Below are positions 8,358 to 10,001 of a stretch of 29,547 bases of DNA, in pieces. The stretch's first letter is position 1, and each line of letters opens with the position of its first letter. A program made the translations under genes and the position numbers. This DNA is from an uncultured Myxococcales bacterium (GTDB taxonomy: Bacteria; Myxococcota_A; Polyangia; Palsa-1104; JAEUJZ01): the NCBI GenBank assembly GCA_937952145.1, contig CALFYE010000446.1:1-29547 (forward strand), given 5' to 3'. Under the pieces are notes generated by a model that saw only the letters and a program-made list of their open reading frames with translations, ran no database searches and had not been told where the DNA came from.

Positions 8358-10001
8358 TCACAGACGGAAGAGGACGGCGAAGATCGCTTTGGTCTCGGCG
8401 TTGACGAGATCCGGTGTCCAGCCGGCCGGGGCGCAGGTGCTGATCTGCCCGTCAGGGCTGCTGAGGCCACCGCACTTGTAGCCATCGGGACCGGTGACGC
8501 CGCCAGCCCCGGCGTAGTACGGCACGCTGGCCTCGTGGTGCGAGACCTCAAGGCGGAAGGTGATGTTTTCCGCCGGATACCAGCTGATGTTCGACGACAC
8601 ATCCCAGCCGAAAAACTCGGTACCGCTGCGCGTGTCGAAGGTCGCGGCCGCAACGCCAGTCGGTACCAGCACAAGATAACGCCCGGGGTTGCGAATGAAG
8701 CCGCCCCCGGCCATGAAGCTCAGGTGATTCTTCCAGAACCAAAGCATGTGGTAGGCCATCGCCGACAGGAAGCTCTGCTCGCAGGGATCGTTGTCGGTGC
8801 AGTTGCCGGGATCGTGCTTGCCGCGGAAGGCAGTGACGCCGCCGCCCTCTTCGAAGCCGAGATCGAAAGTGACGCTGACCGCCGCGCGACTGAGCCCGCG
8901 TCCGGAAGGTCGATTGAAGTAGCGCAAGAGCAGACTGTTGTCGCTGTGCACGCGCACGCGACCGGCGTTGCCCTGGGTATCGGTGCCGACGTAGCCGTTA
9001 AACACCAGCTTGATCCACTCCTGCGGTGCGTAGTGGACTTGATAGCCGACGCCGGGAAGCTGATTGAACTTGCCGTAGGTCTGCCAGCCGTTGATCAGCC
9101 ATAGCTCCAGCTTCAAGCGGTCGGTGGGAAAGATCTGCAGCCGCGCACCATTGAAAAACCACGGCGTGTTGTCGGATGTAAACGACGCCTGATAGCCCCA
9201 GTTTTCAAACTGCGTGTACGAAAACAGCCCGACGTACGAAAAGAACAGCCCGACGTCGAGGTTGATGCCGTGCAGCCGGTCCCAGTGATAGCCGGCGTAG
9301 GCCTCGCTGAGATAGCGATACACGCTGAGCAGATCGAACTGCCCGCGATTCACCGTCAGATCATTTCGCGGCACCGCGGTCGAGCGCGTACCGAACTGCG
9401 TGAACAAGCGAGCCCGCACCGGACCGATATGCGCATCGCCGCCAAATCCCAGGAAGGCCAGCGTCAGCTCGTTGTGACGCGCGGTGGCCGTCGAGCCAAC
9501 CAGTGTGTTGTCGATCGGCTGGTTAAACGAGAACGTGTAGTTCGAGTCGATATCGACCTGCGGCGTGAAGTACTTGCTGTCGAGCAAGTGCCCGGTCTGC
9601 CGACTGCCGCCGTTGATCCAGGTGAAGTCGCCCCAGGAAAACGGCTCGGCCGAGGTGGGTGTTGCTGGTGTCGGTGTCGGAGTCGGTGCCGCATCGGGGG
9701 GACTCGTCGTCGTCGTCGTCGTCGTCGTCGTCGTCGTCGTCGTCGTCGTCGTCGGGGTGGGTGGTGTCGTTCGCCCCGCGCGCAGATCGCGCACCTCCGC
9801 TTCTAGCTGCTGCAGGCGGGCCTCTAGCGAGCTTTCAGAAGCTGGGGCACGCGGCTTGGTCGCATCGCCTGCGAGAGGAATATCGGCTCGCTCGAAGGAC
9901 TTATGGGGGGGCGTCGCTTCCGGGGCAGGCTGCTGTGCCTGTCCAGCGGCAGGGAAGAGGGAGGTCGCAAGCAGCGAGAACGCGAGGATCTGAGTCTTCA
10001 T
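8358..10001 (-). CDS. Putative outer-membrane beta-barrel porin. Has a signal peptide, an N-terminal coiled coil, a Pro/Thr-rich linker containing a 16-residue poly-Thr run, and an aromatic-rich barrel domain
   Basis: MKTQILAFSLLATSLFPAAGQAQQ signal; LEARLQQLEAEVRDLRA coiled coil; T16 linker; alternating amphipathic/aromatic strands (FSWGDFTWINGG, YRYLSEAYAGYHWD, and others). Co-directional with the EBP gene and divergent from kdpFABC. Family not identified (OprB- or OprO/P-like, from memory). Confidence 0.6.
   Translation of the reverse strand: MKTQILAFSLLATSLFPAAGQAQQPAPEATPPHKSFERADIPLAGDATKPRAPASESSLEARLQQLEAEVRDLRAGRTTPPTPTTTTTTTTTTTTTTTTSPPDAAPTPTPTPATPTSAEPFSWGDFTWINGGSRQTGHLLDSKYFTPQVDIDSNYTFSFNQPIDNTLVGSTATARHNELTLAFLGFGGDAHIGPVRARLFTQFGTRSTAVPRNDLTVNRGQFDLLSVYRYLSEAYAGYHWDRLHGINLDVGLFFSYVGLFSYTQFENWGYQASFTSDNTPWFFNGARLQIFPTDRLKLELWLINGWQTYGKFNQLPGVGYQVHYAPQEWIKLVFNGYVGTDTQGNAGRVRVHSDNSLLLRYFNRPSGRGLSRAAVSVTFDLGFEEGGGVTAFRGKHDPGNCTDNDPCEQSFLSAMAYHMLWFWKNHLSFMAGGGFIRNPGRYLVLVPTGVAAATFDTRSGTEFFGWDVSSNISWYPAENITFRLEVSHHEASVPYYAGAGGVTGPDGYKCGGLSSPDGQISTCAPAGWTPDLVNAETKAIFAVLFRL
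9714..9763. repeat. Trinucleotide microsatellite (TCG/CGT on + strand = ACG on coding strand), ~16.7 perfect units, encoding the poly-Thr run of the porin
   Basis: gactcgtcgtcgtcg...gtcgg read directly from the sequence. In-frame within CDS 8358-10001. Confidence 0.9.

Follow-up and report, generated by a model that had tools for sequence, protein, structure and literature searches.

A perfect trinucleotide microsatellite lies inside a porin gene in a 29,547-nucleotide (nt) stretch of DNA from an uncultured Myxococcales bacterium (contig CALFYE010000446.1, forward strand; hereafter the window), and encodes 16 consecutive threonines. We consider it probable that this tract arose recently by slipped-strand expansion within a linker of the porin that is permissive and probably periplasmic, and that it is unstable at the DNA level yet close to neutral in phenotype. 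The repeat itself, its reading frame, its position in the protein and its comparison with a sister lineage carry this reading, and are described first.

A pure ACG tract in the porin reading frame

The repeat is an uninterrupted period-3 run of 51 nt at positions 9704–9754, which reads (TCG)17 on the plus strand and (CGA)17 on the minus strand. Tandem Repeats Finder (TRF) reports 17.0 copies with 100% matches and a score of 102, and the run was also found by an exact scan. The original prediction had recognised a perfect 50 nt repeat at 9714–9763; the repeat is real, but that interval lies ∼10 nt too far to the right, shares only 41 of the 51 nt with the true run, and is too short. The genome had also been described as 68% GC, whereas the G+C content of the window is 64.3%. 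Given the base composition, ∼2 × 10^−23 period-3 runs of 51 nt would be expected by chance in the window, and the second-longest triplet run found there by the exact scan is 16 nt. Nor is there any perfect triplet run of more than six units in 833 kb of related loci.

The gene that holds the repeat is the minus-strand open reading frame (ORF) 8358–10001, of 547 aa. The repeat unit is 3 nt, in frame, and lies 250 nt inside this ORF. On the minus strand the surroundings read CCG(ACG)16AGT, the run extending from the last G of the first codon to the A of the last, so that 16 in-frame ACG codons (9705–9752) specify threonines at residues 84–99. A poly-Thr stretch of 16 residues in a porin, as had been proposed, is therefore present, the ORF matching the Pfam family BBP2. 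With a unit of one codon, in frame, the repeat cannot serve as an on/off switch, and a change of length can only add or remove threonines; the earlier view that slippage would alter the linker while the gene stays on agrees with this. Plus-strand ORFs over the repeat, with poly-Val, poly-Ser or poly-Arg translations, were rejected as shadows, since only the porin frame has homologues and a Pfam match. An RNA element was dropped as an alternative reading of the tract because an Rfam search of the whole window gave no match.

When folded as DNA, both strands of the tract can form hairpins in which C–G pairs are combined with T–T or A–A mismatches, with energies of −9.4 and −13.5 kcal/mol. Hairpins of this kind would stabilise slipped intermediates.

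The long tract is confined to one lineage

The nearest sequences to the window's porin (P0001, P0123, P0124 and P0131) lie on two ENA contigs, L080 and L081, which represent a sister lineage with 92–95% nt identity to the window over the regulator, porin, kinase and downstream oxidoreductase genes. At the site of the tract, the sister sequence reads CCG ACG ATG CCG ACA ACG ACG ACG AGT, and the DNA alignment gives a net gain of 27 nt in the window, where each of the sister's interrupting codons stands as ACG. Thus, the length of the tract has changed over evolutionary time, with (ACG)16 in the window against an interrupted stretch of seven codons in its close relatives. The short T4 allele of the sister lineage was found in all four independent full-length sequences (4/4), and is not expected to slip.

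The original prediction had also proposed looking for a poly-Thr tract in orthologues, and here the outcome was negative: no pre-barrel Thr run longer than five residues occurs among the best 120 homologues, which include the outgroups P0002 and P0003. The longest pre-barrel homopolymer of any residue in this set is a run of eight prolines. As the sister lineage, the outgroups and the remaining homologues all lack a long Thr run, the long tract is, by parsimony, derived and specific to the window's lineage.

Comparison with P0124 locates the change more closely. The barrel is identical at 420 of 427 residues (98.4%) with zero indels, and the heptad helix that precedes the linker is 100% identical. 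All of the indels fall in two strongly divergent low-complexity segments, one following the signal peptide and the other being the Pro/Thr linker, which has two.

These comparisons bear on whether the tract, or its copy number, might differ in the organism itself through an error of assembly or sequencing. Errors in a consensus classically arise from the copy number of repeats, and variation within a population would be reduced to a single number. However, ordinary reads and typical assembly k-mers are longer than the 51 nt of the tract, the frame is kept, and the flanks match two independent sister contigs base for base, with a proto-repeat at the same site. We therefore regard an artefact as highly improbable.

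Other collections were searched for the window's lineage and for length variants. The exact porin protein is absent from a collection of 15 billion proteins, the best match in the protein search being the sister lineage at 88%. Among GTDB species genomes, the best matches were partial, at 84–86% identity, and came from metagenome-assembled genomes of uncultured Myxococcales/Polyangia; the window's species is not represented. A 26 nt pattern conserved in the window and both sister contigs had no match in JGI metagenomes, and a scan of JGI metagenomes with the N-terminal 221 aa (the Thr tract being shortened) gave only distant relatives among the matches listed. In the protein clusters of P0001, P0005 and P0002, the search for length variants of the tract yielded only the sister T4, the other members differing across the N-terminal module.

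The porin and its disordered linker

The porin gene begins with an ATG preceded at 8 nt by a ribosome-binding site, GGAG. Its product belongs to the BBP2 / OmpL-like beta-barrel family, as indicated by Pfam, by its homologues, and by structure prediction and comparison. The match to PF07642 (BBP2, putative beta-barrel porin-2) covers residues 151–494 and model positions 8–316 of 339 (E = 4.1 × 10^−35), and its score of 122.1 bits, against a gathering cut-off of 26.2, places the protein in the family. There are 6670 homologues at E ≤ 1e-10. In a Pfam scan at E ≤ 0.1, BBP2 was the only domain found, with no SLH or other domain before the barrel, and an NCBIfam search with the porin gave no match. 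No solved BBP2 structure was detectable by sequence when PDB was searched with the family profile, and a literature search on PF07642 found nothing relevant.

An AlphaFold2 model of the porin, calculated from 73 homologues, has a mean pLDDT (predicted local distance difference test) of 74.8 and a pTM (predicted template modelling score) of 0.72. It consists of an N-terminal hydrophobic helix, which we regard as the signal peptide, a second helix at residues 59–75, a region with no secondary structure from residue 76 to ∼144, and ∼16 strands over residues 145–546. With Foldseek, the best matches of the predicted barrel were to Omp32, PorB, OprP and OmpF-type porins, at a probability of 1.00 and target-normalised TM (template modelling) scores of 0.6–0.66. 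The signal-like N-terminus, the model and the Foldseek matches together predict an exported outer-membrane beta-barrel. A signal peptide is predicted at residues 1–22 (MKTQILAFSLLATSLFPAAGQA, followed by QQ; 9936–10001, minus strand) from the translation and the general A-x-A cleavage rule of signal peptidase I.

The helix at residues 59–75 (LEARLQQLEAEVRDLRA; 9777–9827, minus strand) was modelled with a block pLDDT of ∼80. It is amphipathic, with hydrophobic residues at 60, 64, 67, 71 and 74 in the 4-3-4-3 spacing of a heptad repeat, and the same pattern is found in 67 of the 113 homologues examined. It is reasonable to regard it as a putative periplasmic coiled coil. The linker that follows, residues 76–120 (9642–9776, minus strand), is rich in Pro, Thr and Ala and holds both T16 and the sequence PTPTPTPATPT; it is predicted to be disordered, having low pLDDT and no secondary structure in the model. 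Part of it is encoded by an imperfect hexanucleotide repeat, (GGTGTC)3.7 at 9667–9688 (minus strand; TRF, 87% matches), which specifies PTPTPT with mixed codons (ACT/ACA and CCG/CCA). The order of these elements, with the heptad helix first, then the linker, then the predicted barrel, bears out the earlier description of a PTPTPT/T16 linker between coiled coil and barrel.

Low complexity, a predicted lack of structure and variable length are the features of a Pro/Thr interdomain linker, and all three are seen in residues 76–120. The length and sequence of this segment are hypervariable. Where the heptad helix is recognisable (67 homologues), the linker from helix to barrel ranges from 11 to 47 aa, with a median of 27, and its composition across the family is 26% P, 22% A, 9% T, 9% E and 8.5% S. 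In the window's porin it is 46 aa, compared with 35 aa in the sister lineage. In-frame indels are tolerated best in disordered and terminal regions of proteins (PMC3315296).

The helix itself is missing in P0005, P0006 and P0127, despite barrels which are ∼87–89% identical to that of the window. In a comparison of P0005, P0006, P0127 and P0129 with P0132, we also observed that presence and absence of the helix occur within a single 90%-identity cluster, P0132 having it and P0005 not. The stalk-like N-terminal module thus appears, from these alignments, to be easily gained or lost and evolutionarily plastic, and a longer spacer is accordingly unlikely to be strongly deleterious.

The tract precedes the first strand of the modelled barrel, and for this reason the standard topology of outer-membrane barrels would place the helix, the linker and T16 probably in the periplasm, not at the cell surface. 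The original prediction had allowed for either a surface-exposed or a periplasmic domain; of these the model favours the periplasmic one and not surface exposure. A periplasmic location would remove the usual selective rationale of a contingency locus.

Origin of the tract

The codons of the tract bear on how it arose. In the remaining, confidently assigned genes of the window, threonine is encoded 153 times by ACC, 82 times by ACG, 23 times by ACT and 12 times by ACA, so that ACG makes up 30%. Were synonymous codons chosen independently, an unbroken series of 16 ACG codons would have a probability of ∼5 × 10^−9. This total purity points to duplication or slippage at the DNA level and not to selection for poly-Thr at the protein level: pure codons are the product of replication slippage, and a homopeptide long maintained by selection loses its purity. 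The number of units and their purity are the main determinants of instability in tandem repeats (PMC3899988).

In the mechanism we propose, the starting point would be a short proto-repeat in the porin linker, (ACG)3 preceded by near-repeat codons, such as the sister lineage still has. Replication slippage would then have expanded and homogenised it to (ACG)16. With a one-codon unit in a disordered spacer, the expansion would do no more than lengthen the spacer, from 35 to 46 residues, and a spacer still within the range tolerated by the family would not be removed by selection. Being made up of 17 pure units able to form slipped hairpins, the tract would be mutationally unstable, gaining and losing Thr codons. 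With only a small effect on phenotype, it would be a near-neutral, transient microsatellite rather than a regulatory device.

It is also conceivable that poly-Thr was itself favoured in the window's lineage, as an O-glycosylation array or as a stiff, extended spacer. In secreted bacterial proteins, glycosylation of Pro/Thr linkers is common, and Pro/Thr spacers are known in secreted enzymes. The linker around the tract is already rich in Pro and Thr with mixed codons, as in PTPTPTPATPT, and Thr makes up about a tenth of family linkers. However, the complete purity of the codons leaves no time for, or need of, maintenance at the protein level, the tract is missing from the sister at 92–95% nt identity and from all other homologues, and no glycosyltransferase gene was identified beside the porin. 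Selection for the poly-Thr module is, on balance, unlikely.

Some considerations weigh against a recent, near-neutral expansion. At 46 residues the window's linker is close to the family maximum of 47, and a functional effect is possible. There is no second sequence of the window's lineage in the collections searched, and the copy number may be fixed. The near-neutrality of the tract is an assumption. Finally, a single step of simple slippage would not turn ATG, CCG and ACA into ACG; either there were further steps, or the ancestral tract was purer than that of the present sister.

Comparison with known systems

The original prediction had suggested that the tract could be a contingency locus, in which a high rate of slippage is kept because it supplies varied linker lengths. 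Under changing conditions, these would tune either the activity of the porin or how far and how freely its periplasmic helix can move. The resemblance to the contingency loci of Neisseria, Haemophilus, Campylobacter and Helicobacter is clear in some respects. These too have a long pure repeat in the 5′ portion of an envelope-protein gene, and they share with the tract a presumed slipped-strand mechanism. The 17 perfect units provide the long uninterrupted repeat within a gene that is typical of the class, a high indel rate is physically expected from their purity and hairpin potential, and the reading frame is preserved. The product of the host gene is an envelope protein, the gene itself lying in a stress-regulated kdp / sigma-54 locus, and the linker differs in length between close lineages.

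In other respects, the tract and the contingency loci differ. The latter have units of 1, 2, 4, 5 or 7 nt, or repeats in promoters, so that a change in length switches expression on or off; a one-codon unit cannot switch expression, and the switching or grading of expression by length that characterises the class is lacking here. Contingency loci are numerous in a genome, and their products are surface-exposed or modify the surface, whilst the tract is unique and probably periplasmic and would therefore not be exposed to selection by phages or predators. They are found in host-adapted bacteria, in contrast to the free-living, Polyangia-like soil or water bacterium considered here. The window has no other long triplet repeat, the related loci reach no more than six units, the 120 homologues have no poly-Thr, and all four sequences of the sister lineage show one and the same allele, albeit the short T4. 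Because the tract is the sole long triplet repeat in the window and related loci, and the orthologues are without poly-Thr, an accidental expansion fits better than an evolved tuning device. The contingency-locus proposal is thus not supported, and we rate it as quite unlikely; taken as a whole, the original interpretation is borne out in part.

A more specific form of the idea is that T16 acts as a hypervariable ‘ruler’, which by frequent gain and loss of Thr codons would vary the length of the tether that joins, in the periplasm, a trimerising helix to a porin barrel regulated by K+ limitation and sigma-54. If true, this would give rise to subpopulations with different porin gating, envelope mechanics or Kdp coupling, and a free-living myxobacterium would have a contingency mechanism that is graded and stays in frame. 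We consider it very unlikely.

Pro/Thr-rich and proline-rich interdomain linkers of exported bacterial proteins, such as the PT linkers of cellulases and the periplasmic spacers of OmpA and TonB, are low-complexity, extended spacers. Like them, the porin linker is an indel-tolerant spacer which joins two folded modules and whose length and sequence are free to vary among relatives. These linkers have mixed codons and are stable features, whereas the window's linker has a single-codon microsatellite superimposed on it. As regards mechanism, the tract can be grouped with coding microsatellites and with homopeptide tracts of disordered linkers.

With regard to the protein as a whole, OmpM of diderm Firmicutes, a stalked porin of the OmpM / SlpA type, has a 16-strand barrel, an N-terminal periplasmic triple coiled-coil stalk and an SLH peptidoglycan-binding domain, and the flexibility between its stalk and barrel has been discussed as mechanically relevant (PMC10628300). 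The window's porin is similar in having a helical segment before a predicted, ∼16-strand porin-type barrel. The differences are considerable: OmpM has the SLH domain, and its long coiled coil is connected to the barrel with nothing in between, whereas the window's porin has no SLH domain, a helix of ∼17 residues and a 46-residue disordered linker, and the two proteins have no sequence relationship. With other BBP2 / OmpL-like porins (PF07642), the protein shares the family score and the predicted porin-like barrel fold. The subgroup to which it belongs is set apart by its linkage to kdp genes and by the N-terminal heptad helix and linker.

Genomic context of the porin gene

Immediately downstream of the porin gene is a gene for a sigma-54-dependent response regulator (6898–8259, minus strand), with REC, AAA+ Sigma54_activat and HTH_8 domains in Pfam. 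The adjacency of regulator and porin is kept in eight of the related loci (L001–L005, L007, L080 and L081). On the other side, divergent from the porin, lies a kdp cluster on the plus strand (10402–17981). Its first gene, at 10402–10491, we take to be kdpF from its C-terminal motif LYLLYALLRPERF. The remaining genes were assigned from Pfam as kdpA (10500–12221), kdpB (12221–14278), kdpC (14288–14887), a stand-alone KdpD-N + Usp protein (14884–16125) and a HAMP-PAS histidine kinase (16122–17981).

The set of seven genes, comprising the sigma-54 regulator, the porin, kdpA, kdpB, kdpC, KdpD-N + Usp and the HAMP-PAS kinase, is conserved in the window (6898–17981) and in L002, L003, L005, L007, L019, L041, L044 and L068. 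In Myxococcota the porin gene is divergent from kdp, and in the Bacteroidota loci L041, L044 and L068, and in L019, labelled Ignavibacteriae, it lies inside the operon, between kdpC and KdpD-N. Overall, kdpB is present within the flanking sequence in at least 22 of the 80 related loci compared, of which 79 came from a genome scan and one is the sister contig L080. This conserved linkage in both Myxococcota and Bacteroidota suggests, from gene order, that the BBP2 porin may be an outer-membrane partner or component of high-affinity Kdp K+ uptake. A search of the literature found no paper describing a kdp-linked porin.

The region between the porin and kdp genes contains a sigma-54-type promoter-like site, TGGCACAGCACGTGCT (10259–10274, plus strand), with one mismatch to TGGCAC-N5-TTGCW. 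It lies 5′ of the kdp genes, 30 nt upstream of a small ORF (10305–10388) which precedes kdpF. Matches to the sigma-54 pattern occur at chance level across the window, so that this site is suggestive by its position only. For the porin gene itself no convincing sigma-54 promoter was seen, only the site on the kdp side fitting the pattern. The small ORF (plus strand) encodes a hydrophobic peptide of 27 aa, MHDAVLVLITLGFFGSAWAYARGCEQL, just 5′ of kdpF, and has no Pfam match. A near-palindrome, TTGCTGGCTAGCTTGGCAA, at ∼10107–10125 in the same intergenic region could be a binding site for an activator.

Compared with 9848–16122 of the window, the sister lineage (L080 and L081, with L001 and L004 also compared) is without kdpF, kdpA, kdpB, kdpC and KdpD-N, and only 88 bp separate its histidine-kinase gene from the start of the porin gene. 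Over the first ∼150 nt of the porin gene, the signal-peptide region, window and sister cease to be closely similar in nucleotide sequence, and this loss of identity falls exactly at the breakpoint. The coincidence suggests that a deletion or recombination event had one of its ends within the 5′ region of the porin gene.

Other features of the window

A minus-strand ORF of 980 aa at 21340–24282 has Major Vault Protein (MVP) domains (MVP_shoulder, E = 3e-21; Vault_3; Vault_4). Bacterial MVP homologues have already been described (bioRxiv 10.1101/872010). In the sister contig L081, the MVP ORF is reduced to the C-terminal ∼290 aa and adjoins a phage-integrase gene. At 27334–27395 there is a 13 nt tandem repeat of CGCCGACTTCTGG (4.8 copies, 97% matches, TRF score 117), whose unit is not a multiple of three; it lies between the convergent ORFs 26068–27228 (plus strand) and 27389–28024 (minus strand). 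Near the left end of the window, a plus-strand gene at 2300–3556 encodes a large serine recombinase with Resolvase and Recombinase domains, which hints at a mobile element or inversion system nearby.

Significance

The tract matters little in itself, being one of a known class of triplet microsatellites in coding sequence which make disordered linkers longer and are for the most part neutral. It does provide a clean natural example, in that the proto-repeat survives in a sister at 92–95% nt identity. If read data exist for this organism, the tract would lend itself to revealing strain heterogeneity and to estimating how fast slippage proceeds in a high-GC myxobacterium. More interesting than the repeat is its host gene, which belongs to an uncharacterised group of BBP2 porins tied to kdpFABC, KdpD-N, a kinase and a sigma-54 regulator.

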